The notes beneath the pieces are model-generated. The model was not told the DNA's origin. It made no database searches and saw only the letters and a list, made by a program, of their open reading frames with translations. A stretch of DNA of 64,000 nt from the NCBI GenBank assembly GCA_963811165.1, contig CAWEQH010000010.1, positions 544,001 to 608,000 of the forward strand, in the 5' to 3' direction. Of this stretch, positions 40,096 to 58,699 are shown piece by piece. Origin of the DNA: an uncultured Nitrospiraceae bacterium. Lineage in GTDB: Bacteria; Nitrospirota; Thermodesulfovibrionia; Thermodesulfovibrionales; UBA6898. The translations under genes and the position numbers were made by a program. The number at the start of each line of letters is the position of its first letter. The first letter of the stretch is position 1.

Positions 40096-40125
40096 TTGTC
40101 AATGTCGGATCGCTTGAATTATAAT
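40096..40125 (+). promoter_or_regulatory. Sigma70 promoter, presumed original tRNA-Ser promoter
   Basis: TTGTCA-N18-TATAAT, 10 nt before the tRNA 5' fragment. Confidence 0.7.
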
Positions 40126-40134
40126 GAGAGTCCG

Positions 40135-40156
40135 CGGAGAGGTGCCAGAGCGGTTG
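40135..40156 (+). repeat. attL-like direct repeat: displaced 5' end of tRNA-Ser(CGA)
   Basis: CGGAGAGGTGCCAGAGCGGTTG is identical to 57272-57293. Confidence 0.92.
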
Positions 40157-40733
40157 GCGCAATTTGGGACTTTGCAAAGGCTTGAAAATACCTTAAAAAG
40201 CCTTGCCAGACAAGGATTCACAGGTTATCTTAGTTATTTATAGATAGATATATTTCTACCACTTTTGATGTAACATTTTCACGTTTTTTTCACGGTGGCG
40301 ATTATGGTGTAGGCGATATCTGAAATTGACCTGAAAATGATACGGCCCAGGCCCACTCCAATTTGTCGGCATTTTCCACAACATTCTTGCCAACTTTCAG
40401 GAGAAGCGTCGGGTTCGCCCCGAAATACGCACGGAGATGTACTTCCTCCGCACAAATTTCGATTTGCTGAAACTATTTCTTTCCGTTCAAACTCCGTAAA
40501 ATAGAGGGGGCTCAGCGGACGAGAAGTACTCCCTAAAATTCGCGCCGACAGCCTCTTCTCTAAATTGACAACTTTCAATCCGAAAGAATCGGGCCGGATT
40601 GGATTATGTTTATTCAGAAAGTGGAAGTACCGTTTTTTTTCGACGCCTTAGCTCAGTCTGAATATTTAAGACCGTTCCAAAAATCTCTTTTTTCTAAGGT
40701 TCTGCTTTTTTTCTTAAAAGCGATTTGCATGCA

Positions 40734-42149
40734 TTATCCTGTTTCCTCGCTGACATCACCGGCGGAACCTTCTCCGTCGCTTTGGGCGGACTTACCCTTT
40801 GAGGTGAGATAGAACAGCACGGCCAGTCCGATCATCCCCGAGACGGTGGATCCTGTCAGTATCCCCAGTTTGGCATGATCAAGCAGCAAGGGCTCTCTGA
40901 ATGAGAGGCCGCTGATGAACAGCGACATGGTGAATCCTATTCCCCCCAGGATACTCACGCCAAAGATTTGGGGCCAAGAAACACCACGAGGCAGAGAAGC
41001 GCATCCGGTTCTCACAAAGAGATAAGAAAAGGCGCTGATCCCGATCGGCTTTCCGATGAGCAGGCCGGCGGCGATTCCGAGTGTCAGCGGCGACAGCAGT
41101 GTTTGTGAGAGATTCAGATCGACTATCGTCAGGCCCATATTCGCGAGGGCGAACAATGGGACTACAAGAAAAGCGACCCACGGGTGAAGGGCGTGCTCAA
41201 GCCGCTGCAAGGGGGTCTCCACATGGTGACAGGCGAGCTCGATCGAGTGGACTGAACTCAAATGTTTGGCGTCCTGGAGAATTGAAGGTCCGCATCCCCC
41301 TGGGGGGCAGGAGAACTCGCCCAGATGCTTGCTCACATTCCGGAGAAACTTGTCGGTATCGTACCTTCCTTTAGCCGGTATGAAGAGAGCGACCAAGACG
41401 CCTGCAATCGTTGCGTGGAGCCCCGATCCAAGTACAGCAACCCATAGGCAAGCACCGAGAATAGCATAGATAAGGGTAACACGTATCCAGAGAAGGTTTG
41501 CGACGGCAAGGAGCAGTAAGATGAGAAGAGAAATGAAGAGGTAATGCAGGGAAATCCCGCTGGAATAAAATAGTGCGATCACAATGACGGCTCCAAGGTC
41601 GTCCGCTATGGCGAGCGCAGAAAGGAATACGCGCAGACCGAGAGGAACGCGTTTCCCGAGTATAAATAGCGCGCCGAGGGCAAAGGCAATATCGGTTGCC
41701 ATTGGGATACCCCATCCCTGGCTCGTCGGCAACCCTCTGTTGATGACTGCATATATCGCTGCCGGGAGGAGCATACCGCCGAGAGCCGCGCCGACTGGCA
41801 ATAGGGCCTTTTTCACGGATGAAAGTTCGCCAACGAGGATTTCCCGCTTTATCTCGAGGCCCATGGCAAAGAAGAAGACCGCCATGAGGCCCTCATCGAT
41901 CCACTGCCGGAGGGTCCGGGTGATCGAGGAGTCCCCTATGGAGAAAGAGAGCTGTGTCTCCCAGAACCGATGGTAGGTGTGACCGAAAGGAGAATTAATC
42001 CAGGCAAGGGCAAGGAGGGTCGCCCCGATCAGGAGGATGCTGCTCGATGCTTCATTCCCGAAAAAAATCAGGAAAGGACGAACTAACTCCAAAGCGATTT
42101 TGTCAGGAGACGTCGCATAATGTTTTATCTTCTCGAATAGATTCTTCAT
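40734..42149 (-). CDS. nhaA: Na+/H+ antiporter NhaA
   Basis: GLEIKRE, GWGIPMATDIAF, LAIADDLGA, SGLHAT, LFALAN, GIGFTMSLFI. Confidence 0.95.
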   Translation of the reverse strand: MKNLFEKIKHYATSPDKIALELVRPFLIFFGNEASSSILLIGATLLALAWINSPFGHTYHRFWETQLSFSIGDSSITRTLRQWIDEGLMAVFFFAMGLEIKREILVGELSSVKKALLPVGAALGGMLLPAAIYAVINRGLPTSQGWGIPMATDIAFALGALFILGKRVPLGLRVFLSALAIADDLGAVIVIALFYSSGISLHYLFISLLILLLLAVANLLWIRVTLIYAILGACLWVAVLGSGLHATIAGVLVALFIPAKGRYDTDKFLRNVSKHLGEFSCPPGGCGPSILQDAKHLSSVHSIELACHHVETPLQRLEHALHPWVAFLVVPLFALANMGLTIVDLNLSQTLLSPLTLGIAAGLLIGKPIGISAFSYLFVRTGCASLPRGVSWPQIFGVSILGGIGFTMSLFISGLSFREPLLLDHAKLGILTGSTVSGMIGLAVLFYLTSKGKSAQSDGEGSAGDVSEETG

Positions 42150-42619
42150 TAGTACGCCCTTACCCTGCTCTTCCCTCTAAACTCACCTCGGCGTGGGACG
42201 AATTCCTGGCAAAAATTATATCTGTCGATTGTATAACCGTCTTTCATGAGGGGAAGTCCTCAATAATTTTTGGAATTGGCATCAACTTTTTCACTTCAAT
42301 TCACTTCAAATGGAAAGAACTTTTCCATCACGAAACGCCCTGATTCATAATAGCGTATAATTCGATGACTTTATAGGAGATTACGTAATGGCGTCAACTT
42401 CATTTTAGATTAATATCCATCAATCTGAGTCATGTGCTTTTTCAGCCTAAATTGTCGTTTTTGCTGTGATTCCGTTGATATATGGGCAAAATTGATATTA
42501 TAACTGCTACTGTCCAAATCCCCTCGAAGGCCTGCGCATTGTACCTTATGCTTGTGAGGTGTGGGAAGCTTATCGGCCTTTCGCAGGTGTCTAAAGATCA
42601 ATAGAAATCTCATCAATTT

Positions 42620-42636
42620 TTTACGAAATCTTTATA
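42620..42636 (+). promoter_or_regulatory. Putative KdpE-binding site
   Basis: TTTAcgaaatcTTTAta is a TTTA-N7-TTTA direct repeat like the E. coli kdpFABC site, upstream of the K+ gene run. Confidence 0.5.
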
Positions 42637-42701
42637 CTGCCGGGCCCCTTATTTAGACCTATTTTATTCGCTTTAGTGATACCCTGAAAACATGGAGGCA
42701 G

Positions 42702-42806
42702 ATGAAAATGGATGGCTTATATTTTTTTGTGGTTATTTGGTGTTTGACTGTGGTCATTGGATGTTTGACTCTCACCGGATTGATGGTGAAGTACTTGAAC
42801 GCATAA
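42702..42806 (+). CDS. Small hydrophobic membrane peptide (32-34 aa)
   Basis: GGAGG SD; MKMDGLYFFVVIWCLTVVIGCLTLTGLMVKYLNA. Confidence 0.45.
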   Translation: MKMDGLYFFVVIWCLTVVIGCLTLTGLMVKYLNA

Positions 42807-42815
42807 ATAACGGAA

Positions 42816-43361
42816 ATGAATAAAATGATTCACTCACAATCTTTGCAGTTACTTTGCAGTGGAGATGGCTCATCTCAAACAGCCGTTTTGGAAATTCCGT
42901 TAATTGATGCGCAGGCCTTGGATGCCAGGGGAAATCATTTTGTGGTAATCCCTGTCGCGGAGGTGAACAAGGTGTCGATGAACGCAATTAGTTATGCAAA
43001 AGTTCTTAACGGCGAAATTGTTGCGGTCCACATACTTCTTAAGCCTTCAGACAGGGTAGGGCTCGAATGCATGTGGAAAATGCAGAATATGGATATTCCC
43101 CTTATTATTCTTGAATCTCCATACGGTTCTCTGATTGGGCCGCTCATGGCATATGTGGACGAAATACATCGTTGCAATAAGGAGAGTGTCGTCACTATCG
43201 TATTGCCGGTGCTTATCGGCCTGAAACGCCGGCATCGTTTTTTGCATAACCAAACAGCTCGTTTAATTGAAAGGGCTTTTCAGTCTAAGGCAGGAGTGGT
43301 GACCGTACGCGTTCCGTTTTCTTTAACAGATGCTTCTTCTAAACAAAGTTGTGTTCTTTAA
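42816..43361 (+). CDS. Stand-alone C-terminal cytosolic domain of a KimA/YdaO-type APC transporter
   Basis: VVIPV..VNK...AISYAK.L..IVAVH..W..IPL.ILESPY.SL..PL..YVD..VTIVLP..LHNQTA..VV..VPF; no TM domain. Confidence 0.75.
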   Translation: MNKMIHSQSLQLLCSGDGSSQTAVLEIPLIDAQALDARGNHFVVIPVAEVNKVSMNAISYAKVLNGEIVAVHILLKPSDRVGLECMWKMQNMDIPLIILESPYGSLIGPLMAYVDEIHRCNKESVVTIVLPVLIGLKRRHRFLHNQTARLIERAFQSKAGVVTVRVPFSLTDASSKQSCVL

Positions 43362-43438
43362 CACAATGAGAGACGATTTTGATAACTCCCATGATGATCG
43401 TAAAAAATGAATAAGTATTTTCGCAAAGGAGGTGCGTT

Positions 43439-43519
43439 ATGGACATTGTCTATATCGGTATAGTGGTCGCGTTATTTATCCTCAGCCTGCTCTTCGTGAA
43501 ACTGGCTGAGAAAGTATAG
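43439..43519 (+). CDS. Small membrane peptide upstream of kdpF (26 aa)
   Basis: AAGGAGGT SD; MDIVYIGIVVALFILSLLFVKLAEKV. Confidence 0.7.
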   Translation: MDIVYIGIVVALFILSLLFVKLAEKV

Positions 43520-43542
43520 GAGAAAAACTTAGGAGGAAAACT

Positions 43543-43635
43543 ATGGAACTGTTCTACTGGATCGGCGGTATTGTAGCGTTCGGTCTTCTCGTGTATCTTT
43601 TTGTGGCTTTACTAAAGCCGGAGGTGTTGTCATGA
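43543..43635 (+). CDS. kdpF: K+-transporting ATPase subunit F
   Basis: [38 protein letters not shown] (YL..AL..PE); ATGA overlap with kdpA. Confidence 0.88.
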
Positions 43636-45434
43636 CAGGGAATGACATATTCCAAATTGTCCTATATTTTGGCGTCCTGCTGCTTCTTGCGAAGCCGCTG
43701 GGCGGTTATATGGCGAGGGTTTACGAAAACCGGCCATGCGGTCTTGACCGGGTGTTTGGGCCGGTGGAGCGTATTTTTTACAGGCTTTGCGGCATCAGGC
43801 CAGAAGAGGAAATGGACTGGAAACAATATACGATCGCCGTGCTTGTATTCAGCGTGGCCGGATTCGTCGCGGTATATATGTTGCAGCGCATGCAAGGCAT
43901 ATTGCCGCTAAATCCTCAGAAGTTCCCGGCTGTATCGCCTGATTCGTCTTTCAATACGGCTGTAAGCTTCATAACTAATACGAACTGGCAGGGGTACGGC
44001 GGTGAATCGACGATGAGCTACCTTTCACAGATGGTTGGGCTCGGGGTCCAGAATTTTCTTTCTGCGGCGGCGGGCATGGCTGTTTTAGTGGCGCTGATCC
44101 GTGGGTTCAGCCGACATTCTTCAAAGACGATCGGCAACTTCTGGGTCGATCTCACCCGCACGACTCTGTACATCTTGATGCCTCTTGCGCTGATCTATTC
44201 TCTGCTTCTCGTTTCTCAGGGCGTGGTGCAGACCTTCAGCGAATATAAGAATGTGGCCCTTACGCAGACTATCACCTATGATAATCCGAAGCTCGATGCC
44301 CAGGGCAATCCGATCAAGGACGAAAAGGGAACTCCGGTGACGGAGAAAGCTCAGATGAAGGAGCAGGTCATACCCCTTGGCCCTGCCGCTTCACAGATTG
44401 CGATCAAACAGCTCGGCACGAACGGCGGCGGTTTTTTCAATGTGAATTCCGCACATCCCTTCGAAAACCCGACTCCGTTTTCAAATTTTCTTGAGGTATT
44501 GGCGATCCTGCTGATACCGGCGGCACTCTGCATCACATTCGGGAAGATGGTCGGCGACAGGCGACAGGGCCGGGCTCTGCTGGCCGCGATGACGATCGTT
44601 CTCGTCGTTCTGATGACGGTGTGCGTATGGACCGAACGACAGGGCAATCCGCATTTCGCCTCGCTTGGCATTGATCAAACGGCAGGCACATTGCAGCCTG
44701 GCGGAAACATGGAGGGCAAGGAGGCGCGATTTGGGATAGTAAATTCCGCGATCTGGGCGTCCGCCACTACCGCCGCATCGAACGGTTCTGTGAATGCCAT
44801 GCATGATTCCTTCACCCCGATAGGCGGTCTTATCCCGATGTGGCTGATGATGTTGGGAGAGGTCATATTCGGAGGCGTCGGCTCCGGTCTTTACGGTATG
44901 CTGATATTCGCTATCCTCACCGTATTCATCGCCGGCCTGATGGTCGGCCGAACACCGGAATATCTGGGCAAAAAGATCGAGATGTTCGAGATGAAGATGA
45001 CCATTCTTCTGATGCTGATTATCAATGCCCTTGTCAAGGTCGGAACGGCGGTTGCTGTTTCTATGAAGGCCGGGGTTGCGGGCATCGCCAATCCCGGGCC
45101 GCACGGTTTTTCTGAGATACTGTATGCCTTTACGTCGGCCTCGAACAACAACGGCAGTGCTTTTGCGGGTTTGAGCGCCAATACTGTTTTCTATAATACG
45201 GCCCTCGGCATCGTGATGTTCATCGGCCGCTTTTGGGCTATAATTCCCGTGCTGGCAATCGCCGGCTCTCTGGCGAAAAAGAAAAAGGTGCCGGTCGGAT
45301 TAGGGACTCTGCCGACCCATACCCCTTTGTTCGTGACCTTTTTGATTGGTGTCATCCTGATCGTCGGAGCTTTGTCGTTCGTGCCTGGCCTGGCGCTCGG
45401 ACCGATAGCCGAACAGTTGATGTCCGGCAGATAA
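43632..45434 (+). CDS. kdpA: K+-transporting ATPase subunit A
   Basis: [35 protein letters not shown]. Confidence 0.97.
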
Positions 45435-45458
45435 CAAAATACGGATTGTGAGGAAATT

Positions 45459-47531
45459 ATGACCAGAAAAACTAATAAAAGATCTCTTTTTGAACCGACA
45501 ATTGTACGTCGGGCCTTGTGGGATTCGGTCAGGAAACTGAATCCGGTACATCAGATAAAGAACCCGGTGATGTTCGTGGTGGAGGTGGGCAGCGTTCTCA
45601 CGACCCTCCTTTTCTTCCGCGCACTTACCGGCAAAGGTGAGGCGTCTCCGGGCTTCATACTTCTGATTTCGATCTGGCTCTGGGTAACAGTGCTCTTTGC
45701 TAACTTTGCCGAGGCGATGGCGGAAGGCAGGGGTAAGGCCCAGGCTGAATCATTGCGTAAGACGCGAAGCGACGTCACAGCAAAACGCCTTGCCAAGGAG
45801 GACCGGAATTCCGAAATCACCAAAGTGTCTTCTGCCCAGCTCAAGAAAGGCGATATCGTGCTTGTAGAGGCCGGCGATACGATTCCTATGGACGGCGAGG
45901 TGATCGATGGCGTTGCCTCGGTGAATGAAAGCGCTATTACTGGCGAGAGCGCTCCTGTGATCAGGGAAAGCGGCGGAGACTTCAGTTCCGTGACCGGCGG
46001 CACGAAGGTGCTGTCCGACTGGATTGTGGTGAGAATCACCGTAAATCCCGGTGAGACGTTCCTCGATAGGATGATTGCCATGGTTGAAGGCTCAAAGCGG
46101 CAGAAGACGCCGAATGAGATCGCCCTGGACATACTGCTTGCAGGTCTGACGATCATCTTTCTGCTGGTGACCGTGACCTTGCTTCCATTTTCGATCTTCA
46201 GCGTTCAGGCGGCAGGCCAGGGAAGCCCTGTCACCATAACCGTGCTTGTCTCGCTTCTGGTCTGCCTGATCCCGACCACAATCGGCGGACTTCTTTCGGC
46301 TATCGGCATCGCAGGTATGGACCGGATGATCCAGGCCAATGTGATCGCCATGTCCGGCCGTGCGGTGGAAGCGGCAGGAGATGTTGACGTGCTGCTTCTC
46401 GACAAGACCGGGACGATTACACTCGGCGACCGACAGGCCACCGCGTTTTTTCCCGTTGCGGGAGTAGATGCGCGAGCCCTCGCCGATGCGGCCCAGCTTG
46501 CGTCCTTAGCAGACGAAACTCCTGAAGGGAGAAGCGTCGTTATTCTGGCAAAAGAAAAATACGGGATTCGCGAAAGGGACATCCATTCCCTCGGCGCGGA
46601 ATTTGTTCCTTTCACTGCACAGACAAGGATGAGCGGCGTAAATCTCAACGGTCGTCAGATCCGCAAAGGCGCGGCGGACGCGGTCGAAAAATATGTCCAG
46701 TCACAGGGAGGAACGTTTCCGTCTGATATCCGCGCAATCGTCGACGATATCGCAAAACAAGGTTCAACACCGCTCGTCGTGGCCGAAGGACAGAAAGTGC
46801 TCGGTGTTATTCAGCTGAAAGATATTGTCAAGGGCGGAATTAAAGAGAGATTCGCTGAGTTGCGGAATATGGGGATCAAGACGATCATGATCACCGGAGA
46901 CAACCCGCTCACTGCCTCGGCGATTGCTGCCGAAGCCGGGGTCGATGATTTTTTGGCGGAGGCAACGCCCGAGGCCAAACTGAAGCTCATCCGTGAGCAC
47001 CAGGCTGGAGGTAGACTCGTGGCCATGACCGGAGACGGCACAAACGACGCGCCGGCGCTGGCACAGGCCGATGTGGCCGTTGCGATGAACACGGGCACTC
47101 AGGCAGCAAAAGAGGCGGGCAATCTCGTTGACCTCGACTCCAACCCAACGAAGCTGATAGAGATCGTGGAGATCGGAAAGCAGCTACTGATGACGCGCGG
47201 CACGCTCACGACCTTCAGCATCGCAAACGACGTGGCGAAATATTTCGCGATCCTGCCGGCGGCGTTTCTTTCGATCTATCCGGCGCTTGGTGCGCTTAAC
47301 ATTATGCACCTGGCCACGCCGCAGAGCGCAGTGCTTTCAGCCGTGATCTTTAACGCGCTGATTATAATTTTTCTGATCCCGTTGGCGCTTCGCGGTGTGA
47401 AATATCGGCCTCTCGGCGCGCATGTGGTCTTACGCAATAACGCCCTGATTTATGGGGTCGGCGGGCTGGTTGTTCCGTTTATCGGCATCAAGCTGATCGA
47501 CATGCTCATAACAGCCCTGCATATAGTATGA
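45459..47531 (+). CDS. kdpB: K+-transporting ATPase subunit B
   Basis: [26 protein letters not shown]. Confidence 0.98.
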
Positions 47532-47544
47532 AACGGAGGAAATC

Positions 47545-48123
47545 ATGATAAGAATGATTCGCAACACACTCATGTCTCTGTTACTCTTCACAGTTATCAC
47601 CGGGTTTATTTACCCCCTGGCGGTGACAGGCCTGGCCCAAGTGATATTTCCTGGCCAGGCAAACGGGAGCATCATAACGAAGAACGGCAAGCCCGTGGGC
47701 TCCGAACTGCTTGGACAGCAGTTCGAAGACCCGAAATATTTCTGGGGAAGGCTTTCCGCGACAACCCCCTATCCCTATAACGGAGGTTCGTCATCCGGCT
47801 CTAATCTCGGCCCGAACAACCCTGACCTTATGAAGGCCGTGCAAGCAAGGATTCAGGCCCTGCGCGAGGCTGATCCGGGCAATACAACGAAGATACCGGT
47901 TGACCTGGCTACTGCCTCAGGCAGCGGACTTGATCCCCACATCAGCCCTGTGGCTGCTGCGTATCAGGTGCAAAGGATCGCAAAGCTTCGCGGCGTCGAT
48001 GAGGCAAAAGTCAGCGCATTAGTGGCTGCCAATACCGAAGGCCGGCAGTTCGGGTTTCTGGGCGAGCCTGTGGTGAATGTGCTCAAACTGAATCTGGCAC
48101 TTGATGACCTCGGTCAGAAGTGA
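47545..48123 (+). CDS. kdpC: K+-transporting ATPase subunit C
   Basis: [36 protein letters not shown]. Confidence 0.97.
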
Positions 48124-48126
48124 GAG

Positions 48127-48540
48127 GTGAAAATACTGAAGGGCAAACCTATGACAAAAGACAGAATTGAAAAAATAATTGCATTTCTGCTCTTGGTGGC
48201 TATCAGCGCGCCCTTGACTGCGTTTGCCGTAGACTATCCGGTCCAGCTTTATCATCGGGAGGTGAGGCACGACAAGTTTGTCAAAGGCGACACAGTGTAC
48301 ATGTTTCATAGCGGCACTGAAGACGTAAAGAAGACCATTCACGTTAACGATACGCTCGCTGTTTATCGGGTGTCCCCGACTTGCGAAGTAGCGCCAATTG
48401 GAATAGTCAAGATAGTCTCCTTTGTCGGAGAAACATATATCAAGGGAGAGGTCTTTGCCGGCGAGATTAAGCCTGATGATATAGCGAAAAAGGATAATGT
48501 TTCGTGTCTTATCATCTCGGCAGGTGTATGTGAACATTAA
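48127..48540 (+). CDS. Exported hypothetical beta-rich protein directly after kdpC
   Basis: Signal peptide ..LLVAISAPLTAFA; begins 3 nt after the kdpC stop (alternative ATG at 48151). Confidence 0.65.
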   Translation: MKILKGKPMTKDRIEKIIAFLLLVAISAPLTAFAVDYPVQLYHREVRHDKFVKGDTVYMFHSGTEDVKKTIHVNDTLAVYRVSPTCEVAPIGIVKIVSFVGETYIKGEVFAGEIKPDDIAKKDNVSCLIISAGVCEH

Positions 48541-48739: not shown

Positions 48740-48961
48740 ATGGAATCCCTTAAACAAAAATTAAAGGAAATTGAGAAAGACGAAATCATTCACGCGCTAA
48801 AAGAATGTAACTGCGTGAGGACCAGAGCCGCCAGAAGGCTGGGCATTACTGCAAGGATGATCGGATACAAGATCAAGAAATACGGCTTAAGGATAAAGGA
48901 GGTGGGCTCTGTCGAGGATGGCGACGCAGAGCAACACGGACACCAGGAATACATGGGATAG
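48740..48961 (+). CDS. Stand-alone Fis-type HTH protein, copy 1
   Basis: EKDEIIHALKECNCVRTRAARRLGITARMIGYKIKKYGL, like the C-terminal HTH of sigma54 activators. Confidence 0.75.
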   Translation: MESLKQKLKEIEKDEIIHALKECNCVRTRAARRLGITARMIGYKIKKYGLRIKEVGSVEDGDAEQHGHQEYMG

Positions 48962-49009
48962 AGAGAAGTGGTTTTCCAACCACAAACTCAGAAAGAAAAA
49001 AGGAGCATC

Positions 49010-49321
49010 ATGAAACTAATAGAAGCAGTGATAAGGCCTTTAAATTTGGAAGAGGTGGAAACAGCCCTTAAAGAAATGGGAGTGGAGGAAATAGGGGTTG
49101 AGGAAATATTGGTTAGCCGACTCTCAAGTAACGGCTTCGGGAAAGGGGTGTTGTACCGTGGGGCGGAGTATGTGGCAGACTTCATGACAAAAATGAAAGT
49201 CGAGATTATCGTTGAGGATGGTCTTGTGGACAAGGTTGTCGGAACAATCCGCAAGATTGCCAGGACGGACCGGAAGGAAGATTGCCGGATATTTATCCTC
49301 CCTCTCGTTGAAGCATTTTAG
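49010..49321 (+). CDS. Divergent P-II family (GlnB/GlnK-like) protein
   Basis: MKLIEAVIRP..L..V..AL, GFG, YRGAEY..DF..K.KVEI.V; altered B-loop, C-loop missing. Confidence 0.8.
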   Translation: MKLIEAVIRPLNLEEVETALKEMGVEEIGVEEILVSRLSSNGFGKGVLYRGAEYVADFMTKMKVEIIVEDGLVDKVVGTIRKIARTDRKEDCRIFILPLVEAF

Positions 49322-49421
49322 GCATGCACTCTCTTAGCCGCGGGGCAGTAGAAGAGCTCTAGTTAAGAGCCGAGCGTTGCATACGCTCGCATCAGCACGT
49401 GCATAACCCTGGAGAGAATAA

Positions 49422-49622
49422 ATGGTAACACTAAAAGATAGACTGAAGGATGTGGAGAAACAGGAGATAATAAGCGCCCTCAAAGAATGTAACTACGTGA
49501 GAGCCAGAGCCGCGAGAATGCTGGGCATTACTGAAAGGATGATCTGTTACAAGATCAAAAAATATGGCTTAAAGATAAAGGAGGTGGGCTCAGTCGAGGA
49601 TAACGGAGCAGAGGAACGCTGA
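49422..49622 (+). CDS. Stand-alone Fis-type HTH protein, copy 2
   Basis: EKQEIISALKECNYVRARAARMLGITERMICYKIKKYGL; close paralog of 48740-48961. Confidence 0.75.
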   Translation: MVTLKDRLKDVEKQEIISALKECNYVRARAARMLGITERMICYKIKKYGLKIKEVGSVEDNGAEER

Positions 49623-49676
49623 CAGCAGAAATGGCAATACAGGCTTTATTTTTTTGAAATGAAAAAGGAGGAGACG

Positions 49677-50831
49677 ATGAAAAAGATTATTTTTGGAATC
49701 GCTTTTGCGATTCTGATGACATTCACAGTAGCTGGAGGGGTATGGGCCGACGAAGCGAAGCCGGCGGACACTACTGCTGCAAAGCCGGCAGGCACAAGCC
49801 TGGACGACATCAAGAACATGCTCGGCCTGAGCATTTATCTTCAGGGCGGATACAATTATAATTTTACCAACCCCGATTCGCAGGAAAACAGACTCAGGGT
49901 CTTCGACCATAAGGCGAACAACTTTACCCTCGACCTGGCTCAGATTGTTTTCAACAAGGATGCCGCTGTCGGGGGTGTCGGCTACAGGCTGAAACTCTCG
50001 GCCGGCGAGACGGCGAAGTTCATTCACGCTGCCGGTCTCGGCAATACCGGTGATGCGTTTGACCTGACAGAGGCGTATATCGCCTATGTCGCTCCGCTGG
50101 GCAAAGGCCTCAAGTTTCAGTTAGGGAAGTTCGCCACTTTTACCGGTGCGGAGGTGATCGAGGCAAGGGACAACATGAACTACTCGCGCGGCCTCCTTTT
50201 CAACTGGGCTATACCCTTTACCCATACCGGCCTTATGATCGGCTATCCGTTTAGCGACAAGGTGAGCGCGAATTTCTATGTGGTCAACGGCTGGGACAAC
50301 TTCAGCGAAGATACCGGCAGCAGCAAGACCCTCGGGCTGAATTTCAACTGGACCCCTGCAGAACAGTTTTCGCTTGCGGTGAACTTTCTGAACGGCCGGG
50401 AGGTCATTGCCGGCGGAAGCGATGTGCGCACGAACAGGTTCCTTTCGGATACGGTGATCACGATAAAACCGATGAAGAACCTCACCTTTGTGATAAACCC
50501 CGACTGGGCGTCGCAGACCGGTGCAGCGTCCGACGGCTCAAGGGCAGAATGGTATGGAGTGGCGGGATATGTGAAATATGACTTCAGCGATATGATCAGC
50601 GGAACAGTCAGGGCCGAATACTTCGACGACAAGGACGGCTTCAGGACAGGCATCGCGCAGAAGGCGAAAGAGGTAACCTTTACGCCTGAGTTCAGGGTTG
50701 CGAAGAACCTCATCGTGAGGCCGGAATACCGTCACGACTGGTCCGACATGAACGCATTCGATTCAGAACATGGCACGTTTGACAAGAAAAGCCAGGATAC
50801 CATTGCGCTCGGCGTGATGTATACGTGGTAA
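49677..50831 (+). CDS. Outer-membrane beta-barrel porin (OmpL-like/DUF1597-type)
   Basis: Signal peptide; GKF.T..GAEVIE...N.NYSR..IPFTHTG..NGWD; terminal aromatic YTW. Confidence 0.85.
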   Translation: MKKIIFGIAFAILMTFTVAGGVWADEAKPADTTAAKPAGTSLDDIKNMLGLSIYLQGGYNYNFTNPDSQENRLRVFDHKANNFTLDLAQIVFNKDAAVGGVGYRLKLSAGETAKFIHAAGLGNTGDAFDLTEAYIAYVAPLGKGLKFQLGKFATFTGAEVIEARDNMNYSRGLLFNWAIPFTHTGLMIGYPFSDKVSANFYVVNGWDNFSEDTGSSKTLGLNFNWTPAEQFSLAVNFLNGREVIAGGSDVRTNRFLSDTVITIKPMKNLTFVINPDWASQTGAASDGSRAEWYGVAGYVKYDFSDMISGTVRAEYFDDKDGFRTGIAQKAKEVTFTPEFRVAKNLIVRPEYRHDWSDMNAFDSEHGTFDKKSQDTIALGVMYTW

Positions 50832-51050
50832 TTGTTTCAAACAAGGAATAAGAAAGTAAAAGAGAAAGTTCTTGAGTCTCTTTGCGATTTTGTGGTTTTA
50901 CTATCGGCAAGCCTTTTGTTTGCCGAGGAACAGGTGTGGACTAACCCTCCTTCTCAGGCTGGACAGGATGCGCCCTGTTCAGCCTGCACCTGCAGCTTTT
51001 GACGACAAAGAGGAACGGACAATGAAAGAATGGAAAGGAGAAGGGTCACC

Positions 51051-51320
51051 ATGGGACTCACCCAGGCTCAAATAGAAAGAATAACATCGCTGGCGAGATC
51101 CTACGGGGCGAACCGGCTCATACTTTTCGGCAGTGCCGTCGAAGATCCGGAAAGGGCACGCGATATTGACCTGGCATTTGACGGGGTTCAGGGATGGAAG
51201 CTTTTTGAATTGGCAGCTAAAATCGAAGAAGAGCTGCATATGCCCCTGGATCTGGTACCGTTAAATCCTCCCTCACGGTTTACAAAGCATATTGAAGGCA
51301 ATTGCAAGGTGTTGTTATGA
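51051..51320 (+). CDS. Minimal nucleotidyltransferase (MNT) antitoxin
   Basis: LILFGS..RDIDLA..DLV. Confidence 0.85.
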   Translation: MGLTQAQIERITSLARSYGANRLILFGSAVEDPERARDIDLAFDGVQGWKLFELAAKIEEELHMPLDLVPLNPPSRFTKHIEGNCKVLL

Positions 51321-51775
51321 TAGCCGATGACCTCAAGGCCGAAATCGATATTGGCATAGAATCGATTGAAACCGCACTGGAAAAGCTTGCCGCTTTGTAC
51401 GTTGATGTGGGAACACGCAGACCTACCGTCCGGGAGAAGACCGCTGCCGCGACTTTCTTGGCCCAGTTCTATGGTGGCATAGAAAACATCCTTAAGCGCA
51501 TCAGTTTATTCCATAACATGCCTATTCCGACCGGCAAGACTTGGCAAATGGACTTATTTAAACGATTTTGCATTCCTTCTTACCGCTCGCTTCCAGAGTT
51601 GATTGATGAATTTCTTGCATCAGGTTTGTCTCCCTACCGCAGGTTCAGACACGTTTTTCACCATAGTTACAGCTTTGAGTTGGAGTGGGAAAGGATGAAA
51701 GAGGGCATAGAAAGGGCCCCTCATCTATTTGTTTGTTTTAAAGAGACGGTGTTGAAGTATGCACAAGACTTATAA
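51317..51775 (+). CDS. HEPN (HepT-like) ribonuclease toxin
   Basis: FYGGIENILKRI, RFRHVFHHSY (R-X4-H); ATGA overlap with MNT. Confidence 0.85.
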   Translation: MIADDLKAEIDIGIESIETALEKLAALYVDVGTRRPTVREKTAAATFLAQFYGGIENILKRISLFHNMPIPTGKTWQMDLFKRFCIPSYRSLPELIDEFLASGLSPYRRFRHVFHHSYSFELEWERMKEGIERAPHLFVCFKETVLKYAQDL

Positions 51776-51854
51776 AGAGACATAGCAGAGATGGCAAGAA
51801 ATAAAGTTGGGCGACTATTGAGCTTCGATCCCTTTACTAAAAAAAAGTACGACA

Positions 51855-51885
51855 GTGAAACTCCCCGCTTACAAAGCGGGGTATT
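51855..51885. repeat. Short GC-rich palindrome (REP/IS200-end-like or terminator)
   Basis: gtgaaactCCCCGCTT-aca-AAGCGGGGtatt. Confidence 0.4.
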
Positions 51886-52066
51886 CTGCAGGAATTTCAT
51901 AAAAAACTTACCTTTTTATAAATCTTTTCGGAGCCATTAATAGTGGAAGAACGACGTCATGAACGTGATCTGATTCTTGATCTCATATCGGTGAATATCC
52001 TTATTTGCTTAAGATCGAGGAGAAAGCTTGAAACGAAACATTTTACCCGAATGGTAAAAGAATGGC

Positions 52067-52771
52067 ATGTTACATGATAACGGACTAATTCTGTTGATCG
52101 AAGATGAGCCGCAGATTCGGCGCTTTCTTCGCGTTACCTTGCCAGCCCACGGTTATCGGTTAATTGAGTCTGACACAGGAGAAGAGGGACTGCAGCGGGC
52201 GACAAACCGCAATCCCGATATCGTCCTTCTCGATCTTGGGTTATCAGATATGGACGGGATCGAGGTGACGAAAAGGTTTCGCGAGTGGAGTGAGGTGCCG
52301 ATCATAGTCATTTCGGCGCGGGAGCAGGAAGAGGACAAGATCAAAGCGCTTGATGCGGGTGCTGACGACTATCTCACCATACCATTTGGAGCCGGAGAAC
52401 TGCTCGCTCGAATACGAGTAGCCCTCCGCCACAGGGCCATACTCCAGTCAGGACAAAAAAAAGCTGAATTCACTCTGGGTGACCTCAGGGTGGATCTTGC
52501 AAACAAACAGGTATTTCTGAAGAATGGGGAGATTCATTTGACACCCACAGAATATCGGCTCTTGCTAGTTTTGATTAAAAACGCCGGCAAAGTTGTACCC
52601 CATATTCAGTTTCTGGAGGAAGTGTGGGGGCCATCTTGTGCTGGTCGGACTGAGTTCGTTCGTGTATACATGGCGGGACTTCGGCACAAGCTCGAGGAAG
52701 ACCCTGCGCACCCAAAGTTTTTGATAACCGAACCGGGTATTGGCTACAAGCTGAAGTTGGTGTTGATGTAG
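52067..52771 (+). CDS. kdpE: KdpE-like OmpR-family response regulator (orphan, conserved Lys lost)
   Basis: IEDEPQIRRFL, LDLGL, REWSEVPIIVISAR..EEDKIKALDAGADDYL, LRHKLEEDPAHP..ITEPGIGY. Confidence 0.85.
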   Translation: MLHDNGLILLIEDEPQIRRFLRVTLPAHGYRLIESDTGEEGLQRATNRNPDIVLLDLGLSDMDGIEVTKRFREWSEVPIIVISAREQEEDKIKALDAGADDYLTIPFGAGELLARIRVALRHRAILQSGQKKAEFTLGDLRVDLANKQVFLKNGEIHLTPTEYRLLLVLIKNAGKVVPHIQFLEEVWGPSCAGRTEFVRVYMAGLRHKLEEDPAHPKFLITEPGIGYKLKLVLM

Positions 52772-53321
52772 CACATGTTTAGTTGATTATAGTAAACGAT
52801 GTTAATCTGAAGGACCAGAAGACGTGCATGGTTAAGTCGCAGGTCAGCGCTTGCTCGATGATGAGAACATGGAGGGAAACAAACATTCGGGGTTAACCCT
52901 TCATTCCGTAATCGTGACCCATCGGCCAACATGCAAAAACAAGACTTGTGGCTGTAAGTAAGATTTTGAAATCGTACCCGCTGGCGTTTCTTTCTGGATG
53001 TACATCGCAAATTTCATCTCAATGCAGGTATGCATGTTTGTATGAGCTATCGTGTGTCAGCTAAAAGCAAGCCGGTGAGAGTTAGCCGGGTGGAACAGAC
53101 AAAGGGACGGTGCATGGTACGAGGAAAAACGTGGACGCTGGCCTTGTTAACTGCTGCGGTCTGTTCCCTTGCCACCCCTGGCAATCTAACGCTGGAATAG
53201 GTGGCCGGATTCGCCGGAATCTCCAGCAATTACTGAGAGTCAGACCATCCAGGAGAAAAGTGTCTCTAAAAGAAATGTTTTTGAGACAAATAGCACATGG
53301 AGGTTAAGTCAAAAGGTGTTA

Positions 53322-53594
53322 TTACTGACGAAAAAGGTCTGAATGGCTTCCGGTCCTCTCAAAGTAAATTGTATCTCCTGCTACTCGATAGATCAAAACC
53401 CAATCAGGTTCTATGTGGCAATCCCGTGAGTCTTTAAACTCCCCTGTTAAAGGGTGGTCATTGTGCTTCGGGTCAAGTGACTCCTGCTTTTGGAGCTTCC
53501 GCATGATTTTGCGGAGTTTCTCAATTTCCTTATGCCGCTTTTGCATCCTTTTGTAGTCTCTCTCAAATTTGGTAGTAGTTTGGATTTTGAGCAC
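53322..53594 (-). CDS. yafQ: YafQ-family mRNA interferase toxin
   Basis: DHPLTG...RDCHIEPDWVLIY..RTGSHSDLF. Confidence 0.92.
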   Translation of the reverse strand: MLKIQTTTKFERDYKRMQKRHKEIEKLRKIMRKLQKQESLDPKHNDHPLTGEFKDSRDCHIEPDWVLIYRVAGDTIYFERTGSHSDLFRQ

Positions 53595-53854
53595 TACTTC
53601 CCCATTTTATCGAAGAACTCATCAAGGTTATTGTGGGAATGCATTTCTTTCCCCTGGCGAGACTTCCGAAGCGTTTCCGCTGTCTCTTTATTCGGCAGCT
53701 CGACATTGAAGGGAAGCCCCCTTCTCAAAATAACCTGTCTGTAGAAAAGGGTGATCGCTTCTGTGCTGGACAATCCCAGCTTTTTTAAAATACCCTCCGC
53801 TCCTTCCTTTAAGACCGGCTCTACTCTTGCCCTTATAGTTTCTGTCTTCGCCAT
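53594..53854 (-). CDS. dinJ: RelB/DinJ-family antitoxin
   Basis: KTETIRARV..K..AE.IL..LGLS...AI.LF..Q....GLPF..PN.ET. Confidence 0.9.
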   Translation of the reverse strand: MAKTETIRARVEPVLKEGAEGILKKLGLSSTEAITLFYRQVILRRGLPFNVELPNKETAETLRKSRQGKEMHSHNNLDEFFDKMGK

Positions 53855-54155
53855 GCCTATTATCTCCTTTCTTGTTCTATTGTACCCCATATGAGGAGCA
53901 AAATAAAAATTATTTTACGTGCACTTTCTGTACTCCTCATTAAGAGCCCTTGCCCTCGAAGGGAAAGCCGTTCGGTTAAAGGCGGGGCCTTCTTCTTTGA
54001 CAGCATCTCACACACCTCGGACATCTCACTAAGCGTGTTGAATGCCTATAGAAACTGTTTAAAAAGTACCACCCCAAGAAAGTAGAAAGCGAGAAGTCAC
54101 TGGAAAGGAATTTCCGGAGACTTTAAAAAAACGAATAGATCTCTGCCACTGAGTT

Positions 54156-54236
54156 TTAACTTGCCTCCGCGATCTGTATTTCTTCATCACTGAGCCTGTA
54201 GAGCTCATAGACAAGTGTATCAATCTTCCTCCTGAT
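54156..54236 (-). pseudogene. C-terminal fragment of a type IIG-like restriction-modification protein
   Basis: Reads IRRKIDTLVYELYRLSDEEIQIAEAS*, matching the ID.LVYELY.L..EEI..E tail of such enzymes. Confidence 0.6.
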
Positions 54237-54290
54237 AATGACACACCTACTCTCATAATAAGTTCGATCTTTATCAGTTACGGATTCCCT

Positions 54291-55144
54291 CTTTTGACGA
54301 TTGCTCCCACAGGCGCAACCAGTCTTCTCCGGGGGAACATCTCCTCGGGGGTCTAGCCGATCCTTTACCTGACAGTGCAGCGTGAGATCAGGGAGACCGA
54401 CGACAAAAAGAGGAAGGTAATTATAGACGACTACGCCTACAGGGTATGGAAGAGCGCAAACGGCAAGGGGAAGGAACCTGAAGTGCTCATCTCCTCACAG
54501 ATACCCGCCAAAGGCCATATCGACATTATGGCTGCCTTCCAGGAATTCTTCGACGCGTCGATCTCGAAAACGATTGTCTTTGACCCCAACACGAGCTTCG
54601 AGGACTTCAGGGACACCTACCTCTACGCCTATGAAAAAGGACTCAAGGGGTGCACGGTTTACCGCGACTCCGGAAAACTCGGCGCCGTGGTAAAGGCCAA
54701 AGACGACGGCTACATCAAGCCGATGGAACTGCCCGGAGAGAGGGTAAAGCGCGCCATCCATGTGGAGATCCCCAACGAGGGCGCGTACGAGGTAGAGGTA
54801 AACGTCGTTGATAACAAGCCTCGCGAGGTCTGGCTGCACGCCCCTGTGGAGCAGAGCGCCGCCGCGCTGATCGAGGCCGTCGTCCGGCTGTCGAGCATCA
54901 TGCTGCGCTGCAACATCAACCCCAGGGACGTCATGAAGCAGCTGAGAAAAGCGAACATGAGTTACGGGAGTGTCAGTAATCCTCTGGCATACATCGAAAG
55001 AGCGCTTCTTAGGGTGATGGGGGCCGTCGGCGTTAAGGATGCTCAGGTGAGCGCGGCATCGAGGTGCCCTTATGCGGAGGAGTGGTCGTCATGGAGGAGA
55101 GTTGCCTGAAGTGTTCCTCCTGCGACTGGAATAAGTGCAGTTGA
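54291..55144 (+). pseudogene. nrdJ: Class II (B12-dependent) ribonucleotide reductase, C-terminal remnant
   Basis: LLTIAPTG.TSLL.GNISSGV*P (TAG at 54354 replaces E), QEFFDASISKT, GLKGCTVYRD; frameshifted terminal zinc ribbon CGG..EESCLKCSSCDWNKCS*. Confidence 0.85.
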
Positions 55145-55301
55145 CAGTGTGAAGACGAGAAGGTATTGGCCGAGGCGACCTGGTACTGCCAAGCTCGCCT
55201 CGGCGTTGCACCCAGAACGCGGCGGGACAACCCATCACAAAGAAGGTTTTGACAAGTGACGTATAAAGAAGTATTCTATATACGTACAAAGGAGGTGCGG
55301 A

Positions 55302-55550
55302 ATGCATACGAAACTTACACTTCGTCTGGACGAGAGACTGATCGAAAAAACCAAGAAAATCGCCAAGGCCCGTAATTTGAGCCTGTCGGAAATGGTTGCC
55401 GGCTTCTTTAAGTCTATTACAGGCAGCTATGGAGAAGAGGATATCTCATCACCCGTTTTGTCCGAGATATCAGGGATTTTGACTGGCAAGCATGGCGCCA
55501 AGACCCTGCGCGGCACATACAAACGGCATATTGAGGAGAAATACCTTTGA
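55302..55550 (+). CDS. DUF6364-like RHH antitoxin
   Basis: TKLTLRLDE.LIE..K..A....SLS.MV..F; ends EEKYL. Confidence 0.8.
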   Translation: MHTKLTLRLDERLIEKTKKIAKARNLSLSEMVAGFFKSITGSYGEEDISSPVLSEISGILTGKHGAKTLRGTYKRHIEEKYL

Positions 55551-55960
55551 AATCAGCTCTCTGCGACGTCAACTTTTTCCTCGACATCTTCCTGAAGCGT
55601 ACGCCCTTTTATTCCCCTGCCGCCAAGCTCTTCGCTAAAATGGAAAGAGGGGAAGTGAAAGGGTATATATGCTCGTTGACCTTTCCAATTCTGTTTTATC
55701 TGCTTTCGAAAGAGATTGGGCGTGTGCAGGCCGCAAAAACCCTTGAGAAGATCAGAATTGTTTTTAGAGTGGCTGCTGTTGATGAAAAGGTTATCGACTT
55801 GTCCCTTGCTTCCGATTTTCAGGACTTTGAAGACGCAGTGCAATACTATGCCGCCATGCAGGCGGGCGTGGTCTGCCTGATCTCGCGCGATAGGGGCGAC
55901 TTTACCGACAAAAGAATTCCCGTGTTGACCCCTGAGGAGTTCCTCGCTATTAAGAGCTGA
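55547..55960 (+). CDS. PIN-domain toxin
   Basis: DVN..LD, DFEDAVQY, SRD..DF, PEEFL. Confidence 0.88.
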   Translation: MKSALCDVNFFLDIFLKRTPFYSPAAKLFAKMERGEVKGYICSLTFPILFYLLSKEIGRVQAAKTLEKIRIVFRVAAVDEKVIDLSLASDFQDFEDAVQYYAAMQAGVVCLISRDRGDFTDKRIPVLTPEEFLAIKS

Positions 55961-56034
55961 AAGGGATCGGCGCTGTTTTAAGATGAGATTGTGAGAGAAG
56001 ATAGATTAAAATGGACGTATAACAGGAGGCGCAA

Positions 56035-56172
56035 ATGATCTCACAGAAAGCCGACTCCAGCCACCATAAGCCTGTGCCGACCATGACGGAATGGGCGATG
56101 ATAGTGTTCGTGATGTTTGCCGGAGTCGGGGCGATTTATTATCTGAGGAGACAAAAAAGAGCCCGAGGATAA
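56035..56172 (+). CDS. 45-aa ORF made almost entirely of an IPTL-CTERM-type sorting signal
   Basis: AGGAGG SD; MISQKADSSHHKPVPTMTEWAMIVFVMFAGVGAIYYLRRQKRARG. Confidence 0.6.
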   Translation: MISQKADSSHHKPVPTMTEWAMIVFVMFAGVGAIYYLRRQKRARG

Positions 56173-57031
56173 ACAAACTTTATAAAATAATCTCTTCAGG
56201 GCTGGGAATAGGACTCGCCCTTTTTTCCCGCGGTGCGCCTAATTATTTCTTTTTTTCGTCGAAAGTCCATAATACATTTCCGGTGAAACCACAATAAACT
56301 TTCTGCTCTTTGTTATGGCTGCTTTATGATGGAAGAGCCACTATGTTCGCGTTGATTTCAGGAGGCAATTTCGTTGGCAGTGGAGCTTCTTCTTTCGTCT
56401 TGATTACGACATGAAGTCTGTTCATAGGAGTTGGAACGTTTGGACCTGATTTTGTGAATGTCTCAAAGTCCTGGTAGGAAGGAGTGTCGGTGCCTTCCGA
56501 CATTCTCAGCAGGTTGCGGGGTAAAGCCTTACAGACTTTTCCAAGGATTGTATAATTGCAGTCTAAGATATAAAAGCGTGTGCCAAGAAAATTGCCAGAG
56601 GATTTTGAAGGAAACGATCTCTCACATTTGTGCCATTCTTCTCAGTTCAACGAAAGAACGGGACAACTCCTATGTAAAATTTGAGAGGTGGTTCGAAGTT
56701 GATTAATCAATCAATTTTCAATTACGGCAGTCCAAGCATCTCCTTTCAGACCGTAGCCTTCGAAGATTGCCCGCCGCCTGTCTCGAGTTCCAAAAAAGGT
56801 GTGTCCGTCCGGGACCGAGCCCCGATCTCGCTCGATCAGGTTTAGAGCGCGTGACGGAATCGTCCCTTACTGGTTATCCTTTAGTAATTCAAGTAATAAG
56901 CTTGCCCCTCGCCCCACCCGATTTGGATACACTATTCCTCGCCGGTCCTGAGGTCCGCATTTTTCGGGTAGATATTCTGGACACCTGAACGCCAGGATCA
57001 CGGCAAAGGAGTGAGAAATCAGACCCGATTG

Positions 57032-57293
57032 TCACGTTTTCTTCACGTTAGTAAGGTTGTTAATACATAAGGGCCGTGATTCATAATAACCAATTACACG
57101 GAGGTGCCAGAGTGGTATTTCACGTTTTGTTCACGTTGGTGAGGTTGTTAATACATAAGTCCTTGATTTATAATAACCAATTGCACAGAGGTGCCAGAGC
57201 GGTATTTTCACGTTTTTTTCACGTTGGCGAGGTTGTCAATACGTAAGCCTTTAATTTATAATAACAATTCACGGAGAGGTGCCAGAGCGGTTG
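57032..57293 (+). repeat. Three tandem ~88-bp units (paired TCACGTT sites + IHF-like site/promoter + tRNA 5' fragment)
   Basis: Units 57032-57119, 57120-57207 and 57208-57293 align along their whole length; each ends in GAGGTGCCAGAG(C/T)GGT. Confidence 0.95.
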
Positions 57294-57362
57294 AATGGGA
57301 CGGTCTCGAAAATCGTTGTGGGGGCAACCCCACCCAGGGTTCGAATCCCTGCCTCTCCGCCA
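57273..57362 (+). tRNA. tRNA-Ser(CGA)
   Basis: Acceptor stem GGAGAGG/CCTCTCC, anticodon loop CT-CGA-AA, long variable arm, GGTTCGAATCC T-loop, encoded CCA. Confidence 0.97.
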
Positions 57363-58698: not shown

Positions 58699-58699
58699 T

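Follow-up and report, generated by a model that had tools for sequence, protein, structure and literature searches.

A 17-kb island at the 5' end of a tRNA-Ser(CGA) gene in an uncultured Nitrospiraceae bacterium, probably the decayed remnant of a tyrosine-integrase element

Results

The stretch of DNA analysed here, referred to as the window, comprises 64,000 nt of contig C10 (G000:C10:544001-608000; GenBank CAWEQH010000010.1, assembly GCA_963811165.1) from the genome of an uncultured Nitrospiraceae bacterium, which consists of 10 contigs with a total of 3.66 Mb and is denoted G000 among the genomes compared. It contains a single tRNA gene, tRNA-Ser(CGA), which was identified by ARAGORN and confirmed by Rfam (at gathering thresholds nothing else was found between 39500 and 58000), and upstream of this gene an island carrying nhaA, a second kdp cluster and several toxin-antitoxin pairs (Table 1).

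The island is bracketed by two copies of a 22-nt sequence, CGGAGAGGTGCCAGAGCGGTTG, which are located on the plus strand at 40135-40156 and 57272-57293 without any mismatch and enclose 17,137 bp. No third match with up to two mismatches exists in the window and none of 100 shuffles gave any match. The sequence corresponds to positions -1 to +21 of tRNA-Ser(CGA), the right copy being part of the intact gene and the left one a displaced 5' fragment (tRNA positions 1-21 at 40136-40156) upstream of and co-oriented with it, which is the type of fragment that the island finder Islander looks for. The exact matches and the ARAGORN prediction thereby bear out the preliminary description, made from the window alone, in which the displaced piece had been recognized as the 5' end. 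In G000 such a 5' fragment occurs for tRNA-Ser(CGA) only; the remaining tRNA fragments (Arg, Leu, Pro, Ser(TGA), SeC and Leu(TAA)) all represent 3'-side or internal positions.

Table 1. Features of the island and its flanks in window coordinates (att, attachment site; P and P', arms of the element's attachment site; ORF, open reading frame; xis, excisionase gene; int, integrase gene).
Feature	Position	Strand	Basis
MFS transporter and DUF6941, left flank beyond DUF1992			
DUF1992 / DJC28_CD gene, left flank	39619..39990	+	Pfam PF09350, E 2.4e-22
Host (native) tRNA promoter, stranded, TTGTCA-18-TATAAT	40096..40125	+	11/12 match; orthologous to upstream regions of G002-G005
Displaced tRNA-Ser(CGA) 5' fragment (-1 to +21), left 22-nt repeat, attL core	40135..40156	+	
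P' spacer of the element, homologous to left end of the G212 element	40157..40277	+	blastn 74% over 163 nt to L151
P' arm repeat pair TTCACG-N5-TTCACG, predicted integrase arm-type site	40278..40294	+	Position and geometry as in G212, G264, G044
99-aa ORF (orf99), no family, may not be a gene	40279..40578	-	No Pfam match at E <= 1
NhaA Na+/H+ antiporter	40734..42149	-	PF06965, E 1.6e-146
orf181, kdpA, kdpB, kdpC, orf137 (second kdp cluster of the genome)	42816..48540	+	Pfam KdpA, E1-E2 ATPase, KdpC
HTH_8 protein, P-II-like protein, BBP2 (OmpL-like) porin	48740..50831	+	Pfam
Nucleotidyltransferase / HepT-like toxin-antitoxin pair	51030..51775	+	PF18765, PF20797
OmpR-family response regulator (KdpE-like), no adjacent sensor kinase	52067..52771	+	Pfam
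YafQ / RelB toxin-antitoxin pair	53322..53890	-	Pfam
Truncated ribonucleotide reductase, last ~55 barrel residues and TSCPD domain	54375..55109	+	Pfam
DUF6364 / PIN toxin-antitoxin pair	55302..55960	+	Pfam
1.07 kb without recognisable gene, where siblings carry xis and int	55961..57027		
Unit 1: degenerate repeat pair, weak promoter, degenerate 5' core	57028..57115	+	
Unit 2: repeat pair, TTGTTA-18-TATAAT, 5' core with 2 mismatches	57116..57203	+	
Unit 3: P arm pair (57207-57223) and element promoter TTGTCA-18-TATAAT (57233-57262), joined to intact tRNA	57204..57272	+	
Intact tRNA-Ser(CGA), right 22-nt repeat 57272-57293	57273..57362	+	ARAGORN; Rfam RF00005, 52.2 bits
Right flank: Fur-family (Zur-like) regulator, znuC, znuB, znuA	57506..60522	+	Pfam

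An uninterrupted site is present in both congeners that share the flanking gene order (2/2). In G002 this order is MFS, DUF6941, DUF1992, a spacer of 230 nt, tRNA-Ser(CGA) and znuCBA, and in G001 it is the same with a spacer of 535 nt; neither genome has a nhaA-kdp block at this place. The empty site for which the preliminary description had suggested searching thus exists, with the native promoter in front of the tRNA gene, and an ancestral nhaA-kdp order at this position without an empty-site allele, named there as the outcome that would speak against an island, was not encountered. The 21-mer is a single-copy sequence in all congeners that hold it (5/5). When aligned with G002, the left junction of the window follows the promoter up to tRNA position 21 and then diverges, and the right junction follows from tRNA position 1 through the tRNA and beyond.

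Among 54 genomes of the family, only G000 and G044 contain two copies of the 21-mer. One contig of G044 carries a native-type promoter (similar to that of G015 from the same genus) followed by the 21 nt and then by foreign DNA. Another contig carries a HTH_17 Xis-like gene, a tyrosine integrase of 351 residues (PF00589, E 1.1e-38), 49 nt and the intact tRNA-Ser(CGA). This integrase is composed of three parts, namely an N-terminus of ~60 residues with a weak match to Arm-DNA-bind_2 (E 0.0016, below the cut-off), a SAM-like core-binding domain and the catalytic domain.

The G044 integrase was searched against 301 genomes of the order, of which 107 matched at E <= 1e-50, and the 30 best loci were examined. 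At 14 of these 30 loci the integrase ends 53-165 nt (measured from the ends of the tblastn hits) upstream of a co-oriented tRNA gene, in detail Ser-CGA four times, Thr-CGT, Arg-CCT and Leu-TAG twice each, and Arg-CCG, Arg-ACG, Leu-TAA and Gly-CCC once each; 12 loci are convergent with the tRNA, which is the classical 3' type, and four have no tRNA nearby. The layout of the 14 loci follows the integrase tree. In the midpoint-rooted maximum-likelihood tree the orientation label required two changes over the 27 labelled rows, the four rows without tRNA being excluded from the count, and none of 500 label shuffles did as well. The four integrases at Ser-CGA form a clade (99/97).

A displaced copy of the 5' core was found in three of the four Ser-CGA genomes, namely G044, G212 and G264, the last having two such fragments, both on the contig of the tRNA as a tandem array. 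In these three siblings the tyrosine integrase ends 49-121 nt upstream of the co-oriented tRNA, and the second core copy of G212 is followed by a P' region homologous to that of the window. In G268 the tRNA copy is the only one, that is, attR was found without a displaced copy. Identity with the tRNA ends after position 21 (...GGTTG) at all five attL junctions (window, G044, G212 and both of G264).

The array of G264 (L149, G264:C4:512326-550265) consists of two 5'-type islands of 10.6 kb and 27 kb at tRNA-Ser(CGA). The DNA past both displaced cores is near-identical over more than 200 nt, and the middle junction has a different P-arm motif (an ACTGTAG pair), which suggests that the two elements have exchanged ends. 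Elsewhere in G000, a C-terminal integrase fragment of 164 residues is encoded at C8:610360-610969, with 55-56% identity to the integrases of G044 and G212. A tRNA-Leu(TAG) of like orientation begins ~35 nt downstream of it, in the same layout as at the Leu-type loci L146-L148. Although no displaced 5' fragment of this tRNA-Leu(TAG) was found, the fragment is probably another decayed 5'-type element.

Both 22-nt copies lie 10 nt downstream of a sigma-70-like TTGTCA-18-TATAAT sequence (11/12 match to TTGACA-N18-TATAAT) with unrelated spacers; the shared promoter geometry and the difference in the spacers had already been reported from the window alone. The left promoter shares its -35 box, spacer and -10 context with the upstream regions of G002, G003, G004 and G005; in comparison with G002 the identity is ~91% over -45 to -1 (counted by hand on the alignment) and 74% over 70 nt. 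Unit 3, which contains the right promoter, is only 49-61% identical to the upstream regions of G002-G005. The right promoter is 68% identical over 70 nt to the promoter in the attR of G212, the shuffle maximum being 59%. On sequence grounds, the left promoter is the one native to the genus and the right promoter the element's own, and the earlier claim that the element must carry its own tRNA promoter is borne out in so far as it brings a predicted one.

The stranded host promoter faces into the island, antisense to orf99 and nhaA, and no terminator is predicted there on the plus strand. On the minus strand a terminator-like hairpin (40215-40201) is located in the P' spacer, which according to a reading of both sequences is kept in G212. 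According to the preliminary description this promoter could give rise to an RNA containing the tRNA 5' fragment; the would-be transcript (40132-40300) folds no more stably than shuffled sequences (z = -0.38). The possibility that the island DNA following the displaced core itself resembles a tRNA was tried and dismissed as chance, as 911 of 3000 shuffles and 636 of 1199 other pieces of the window were as good.

Beyond the core, the similarity between the two ends of the island extends to a 27-nt stretch with the motif TTCACG-N5-TTCACG (40275-40301), located 142 nt past the start of the displaced fragment, which matches the beginning of unit 3 (57204-57230) at 26 of 27 positions. With at most one mismatch, TTCACGTTTTNTTCACG occurs at only four places in the 3.66-Mb genome, all of them att ends, and a reversed-pattern control gave no match. 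In all four siblings, too, two direct repeats spaced at a period of 11 nt are located in the interval from the integrase stop codon to the -35 box, the motif being ACAATTTTATG in G044, TATCAC[A/G] in G212, GTGACA in G268, TTCCTACG in G264 and TTCACG in the window. Past the displaced core, G212 and both fragments of G264 repeat their element-specific motif; in G044 a TTGACC pair is found there, its period being 10 nt. Genome-wide, the G264 motif is found at att ends only (3/3), as is the G212 motif, with one copy at each end (2/2). Counted from tRNA +1, the start of the P pair is located 64-68 nt upstream and that of the P' pair 142-152 nt downstream, and the window, too, has one pair upstream of the promoter and another in the range of ~110-150 nt past the displaced core. 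Because the repeats differ between elements yet match on both arms of one element, the TTCACG-N5-TTCACG pairs are predicted to be arm-type integrase sites.

In addition, the ends of the island as a whole are homologous to those of the integrase-bearing element of G212. With blastn, attR is 79% identical over 157 nt including the tRNA, and attL 74% over 163 nt; without the tRNA part both halves are 68% identical, with shuffle maxima of 59% (attR) and 56% (attL). The integrase reading frame of G212 extends through the P repeats, and the units of the window align to G212 from ~34 nt before the int stop codon and have a similar reading frame. A metagenome scan for the full repeat pair together with the -35 box gave no match. 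In the genome collection G013 was the only match to a combination of TTCACG, -35 box and core, and was discarded as a further island since its upstream ORFs look ordinary and TTCACG is present only once.

The TTCACG pairs might instead be operators of a transcription factor acting on the tRNA promoters, e.g. of the KdpE-like regulator encoded on the island. The sites of OmpR/PhoB-family regulators are six-base direct repeats separated by a T-rich 5-nt spacer near the -35 box; the pair of the window has just this spacer and lies 9 nt upstream of the -35 box, and the island does encode a regulator of the OmpR family (52067-52771). However, the pair is found again 142 nt past the displaced core without any promoter-like match behind it, and neither kdp promoter region of the genome contains the motif. 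Moreover, the element-specific pairs of G212 and G264 are present on both att arms and genome-wide are confined to them, and that of G212 lies inside the coding end of the integrase. We therefore regard operators as quite improbable.

The homology to G212 also bears on the question of whether any site-specific integration took place. The genome is an assembly of 10 contigs from an uncultured organism, in which a kdp cluster that is an 87% near-duplicate could mislead assemblers, and a chimera formed at a tRNA-like sequence, or else a chance duplication by homologous or illegitimate recombination, would also place a second tRNA 5' end here. The junction at the identical nucleotide (after TTG, position 21) nevertheless recurs independently in G044, in G212 and twice in G264, and the DNA beside the junctions of the window is homologous to G212 on both sides. 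A 22-nt repeat is too short for assembly joins, and the 87% kdp copy lies deep inside the island. An origin of this sort is scarcely credible.

At its right end the island differs from its siblings, in none of which (0/4) tandem units were found. Three tandem 88-bp units (57028-57115, 57116-57203 and 57204-57293), each consisting of the TTCACG pair, the -35 and -10 boxes and the tRNA 5' core, precede the rest of the tRNA, and the core is degenerate in units 1 and 2. The units differ among themselves by 7-15%, while the 22-nt repeats are identical and the arms match at 26/27. Serial integration would predict a period of ~207 nt or units to the left of the island body, and neither is seen. If it had been followed by arm-by-arm deletion, the P' spacer would remain and the left arm would pair with unit 1. 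In contrast, the ~120-nt P' spacer is absent between the units, the left arm resembles unit 3 (96%) far more than unit 1 (78%), and at the unit junctions (...GCGGT|AT followed by the repeat) identity with the tRNA stops at GGT, 2 nt short of the ...GGTTG of attL. Because the junctions, the missing spacer and the match of the left arm do not fit serial integration, the units are more likely to have arisen by a local triplication of the arm-promoter-core module, which would predate the integration or be independent of it.

An integrase was sought within the island in several ways, and the earlier statement that no integrase ORF lies inside held throughout. Profile scanning gave 20 PF00589 matches across the genome and none in C10:584-601 kb. 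The 26 ORFs of the window that were scanned against Pfam included no recombinase family, and a tblastn search of the island with 13 integrases of the same genome and those of G044 and G212 yielded nothing better than E 0.17. In the non-coding stretch beside attR (55961-57027) three of the listed ORFs of at least 30 residues were scanned against Pfam, none of which scored above a family cut-off. A tyrosine integrase inside the island, which Islander uses as a signature, is thus lacking, though the siblings carry one, and all that the units retain is homology to the final ~35 nt of int in G212. Neither the window nor the rest of the genome encodes an integrase that belongs to the Ser(CGA) clade and ends 49-121 nt in front of the tRNA; the closest homologue in the genome (C1:6139-7248) is 38-40% identical to the sibling integrases and falls outside this clade.

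The preliminary description had left two possibilities, namely that the island is immobilised or that it is mobilised in trans, and of these the former is the likelier one. Because neither an integrase nor a remnant of one is present inside and no member of the clade exists in the genome, the island is likely to be immobile. Mobility in trans, as in the case of mobilisable islands that lack an integrase, would depend on an enzyme supplied by another locus of the genome or by a co-resident element. It would be compatible with the intact appearance of both att halves (core 22/22, arm repeats 26/27), and with 20 PF00589 matches, the one on C1 included, candidates are at hand. We nevertheless consider it unlikely. 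The C1 integrase lies beside a convergent tRNA-Arg(CCT) in the classical 3' arrangement, and in the midpoint-rooted tree it clusters with L144, on the side opposite to the Ser(CGA) clade. Besides, the arm motifs vary between siblings, suggesting that each integrase would read its own repeats, and for a cognate Xis the search yielded no more than a 52-residue stretch with 42% identity beside the C1 integrase.

Within the island, the genes appear to be of different origins. The kdp block (42930-48550) is 87% identical to a cluster of the same genome (C8:550762-555373) and 89% identical to G002:C53, and by sequence it is a xenologous duplicate that stems from a near relative. For nhaA, the DNA identity to the nhaA genes of relatives is only 63-68%. 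The response regulator is 67-69% identical at the DNA level to the regulators at the kdp loci of C8 and G002, the YafQ/RelB pair 94% to G002:C9 and the reductase fragment 86-90% to G003, G004 and G022. The island as a whole is best described as a mosaic, as judged from these identities.

At the kdp locus on C8 (C8:550762-559971, L034) ~2.7 kb separate orf137 from the regulator, which leaves room for a gene of the size of kdpD; in the island copy (42930-52771) the HTH_8, P-II and porin genes and the HepT pair take the place of a sensor kinase. A 212-nt direct repeat with 80% identity (48739-48950 and 49421-49632) comprises the HTH_8 region and flanks the P-II-like gene, its second copy being interrupted by stop codons in the frame tried. 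Short stretches at 56074-56226 and 40414-40585 match scattered sites in genomes of the family with 75-92% identity (G016, G040, G002, G024) and may be small repeat elements. Furthermore, 51 nt of the island (40540-40590) match G000:C10:871944-871994, ~250 nt from a tRNA-Ser-like 3' fragment (C10:871680-871734).

As for the flanks, DUF1992 adjoins tRNA-Ser(CGA) in G001-G005, G009, G013, G020 and others. In six of these genomes (G003, G004, G005, G009, G013 and G020; L027-L032) the tRNA is convergent with DUF1992, with 17-25 nt between the 3' ends, and the place between MFS and DUF6941 is taken by another zinc ABC transporter, which is ~35% identical. In G000, G001 and G002 the tRNA is inverted together with its native promoter and followed by znuCBA. 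Two groups within the genus thus differ by a local inversion or replacement. The Fur-family (Zur-like) gene between tRNA and znuC (57506-57940) is absent from this place in G002 (120 nt) and G001 (~39 nt), and an operator-like sequence upstream of it is kept in G002.

Metagenomic contigs provided some further information on the neighbourhood. One of 17.9 kb is 98.5% identical to the left flank (39000-39985) and diverges at the end of DUF1992 into ~800 nt unlike the window; the site may be occupied differently in a very close relative. Two close contigs (87-90%) retrieved with NhaA end inside nhaA and extend toward kdp and not toward attL, and are uninformative on the junction.

Discussion

Taken together, tRNA-Ser(CGA) has been interrupted within its first 21 bases by the island, most likely what is left of a tyrosine-integrase element that has decayed and become immobile, a reading to which we assign a probability of about 85%. 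In the circular form of such an element, attP would have comprised the 3' end of the integrase gene, an arm pair, the promoter, tRNA positions 1-21, a spacer of ~120 nt and the second arm pair. Integration would be catalysed by a heterobivalent tyrosine integrase with the crossover between -1 and +21, i.e. in the segment encoding the acceptor and D-arm, whereby recombination would rebuild the tRNA gene behind the promoter of the element and leave the host promoter facing the island, antisense to nhaA. Later on, int and xis would have been lost from the 1.07-kb non-coding stretch beside attR, which would account for the present immobility.

Several points weigh against this reading. The island contains neither integrase nor excisionase nor a remnant of them, and as no integrase gene is present in the window, the assignment rests on the homology of the att sites and on the siblings. 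The genomes with an empty site belong to other species, with flank proteins that are 75-89% identical, and do not amount to a polymorphism within one strain. Among the assembled contigs of four public runs none joins 40156 to 57293; no listed piece spans either junction, and even for the best DNA runs the fraction of shared words does not exceed 0.31. The promoters and the arm sites are predicted from sequence only. Matching of the arm pairs is not universal, since the arms of the middle island in G264 differ (ACTGTAG on P and TTCCTACG on P'). Finally, the three units, for which more than one origin is conceivable, are 7-15% apart, while the 22-nt repeats are identical and the arms match at 26/27.

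The use of a tRNA gene from its 5' side is not without precedent, and the preliminary description overrated the rarity of islands that displace the 5' end, given that 5'-side islands with a replaced promoter have been documented. Islander reports a 5' tDNA fragment, termed 'reversed target orientation', for 159 of 3919 islands (PMC4383910). As in our case, an intact tRNA and a co-oriented displaced 5' fragment bracket an island upstream of the gene, and because of this upstream position the regenerated gene is fronted by DNA of the element. In contrast to ours, these islands are required to contain an integrase, and because none is present here the algorithm would reject the island of the window. 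The att classes described by Islander are centred on the anticodon or on the T-stem or junction, without a class for the acceptor and D-arm, whereas the crossover considered here lies in the first 21 nt.

In Klebsiella pneumoniae, islands occur at the 5' end of a tRNA-Arg gene (arg2) in a sublocation named 'D-loop', which comprises the 5' acceptor strand, D stem and D loop and is used by a separate integrase clade (10.1101/2020.11.02.365908). Those islands resemble the present ones in their position upstream of the tRNA and in having a distinct integrase clade, and they differ from the window in that they belong to Gammaproteobacteria instead of Nitrospirota, use a different tRNA and have their integrases. 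In the excerpts of that preprint no statement was found on a built-in promoter, arm repeats or tandem promoter modules.

Bacterial tRNA genes rebuilt by integration are described as retaining their original promoter with very few exceptions, while archaeal integrases of the pTN3 type have a tRNA gene's 5' half as attB, its expression then depending on the integrase promoter, a situation 'seldomly encountered in bacteria' (PMC8371274). The target in the tRNA 5' half and the rebuilt tRNA behind an element promoter, which is predicted here, are thus shared with the pTN3 type. That type is however 'suicidal', with an int gene that spans attP and is split on integration, the tRNA using the integrase promoter; the int gene of the siblings is left unsplit, and the 49-121 nt from its end to the tRNA contain a separate sigma-70-like promoter. 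For recombination at the 5'-distal side in general, PMC6563490 cites Zhao & Williams 2002.

The classical heterobivalent tyrosine integrases are those of the lambda type, which have arm-type sites. The three-part integrase and the short motifs repeated on both predicted attP arms, ~65 nt and ~145 nt from the core, would agree with this type, whereas the polarity of the target is reversed with respect to the usual tRNA 3' end. In a limited literature search neither this Nitrospirota integrase clade nor a triplicated promoter module was found to have been described. The back-to-front use of a tRNA gene is uncommon but known, and what is added here is the set of siblings, the plan of an attP with a built-in promoter and the triplicated module.

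Conclusion

Our analysis provides a clean, comparatively validated case of the minority polarity of tRNA integration in a little-studied phylum. Elements of this kind have a need that ordinary ones do not have, namely a promoter inside attP. Since island finders that require an integrase miss decayed members, annotation is affected as well. The siblings constitute a set of matched att sites and integrases with which the arm-type sites and the D-arm core reading can be tested, and which could widen the choice of integrases and att sites for genome engineering.

A broader interpretation, which we put forward tentatively and hold to be rather doubtful, is that throughout the order whole subfamilies of integrases specialise in the acceptor/D-arm end of tRNA genes (Ser-CGA, Thr-CGT, several Arg, Leu-TAG/TAA and Gly-CCC), each with a tRNA promoter in attP between the integrase stop codon and the core, and that the triplicate of the window is a selected feature, providing extra arm sites or tandem tRNA promoters, and not a scar. 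If true, these subfamilies would be the mirror image of the classical tRNA-targeting integrases and in effect a fourth 'sublocation' class. For the bacterium itself, the finding means that the second nhaA and kdp ion-transport block of its genome is horizontally acquired cargo.

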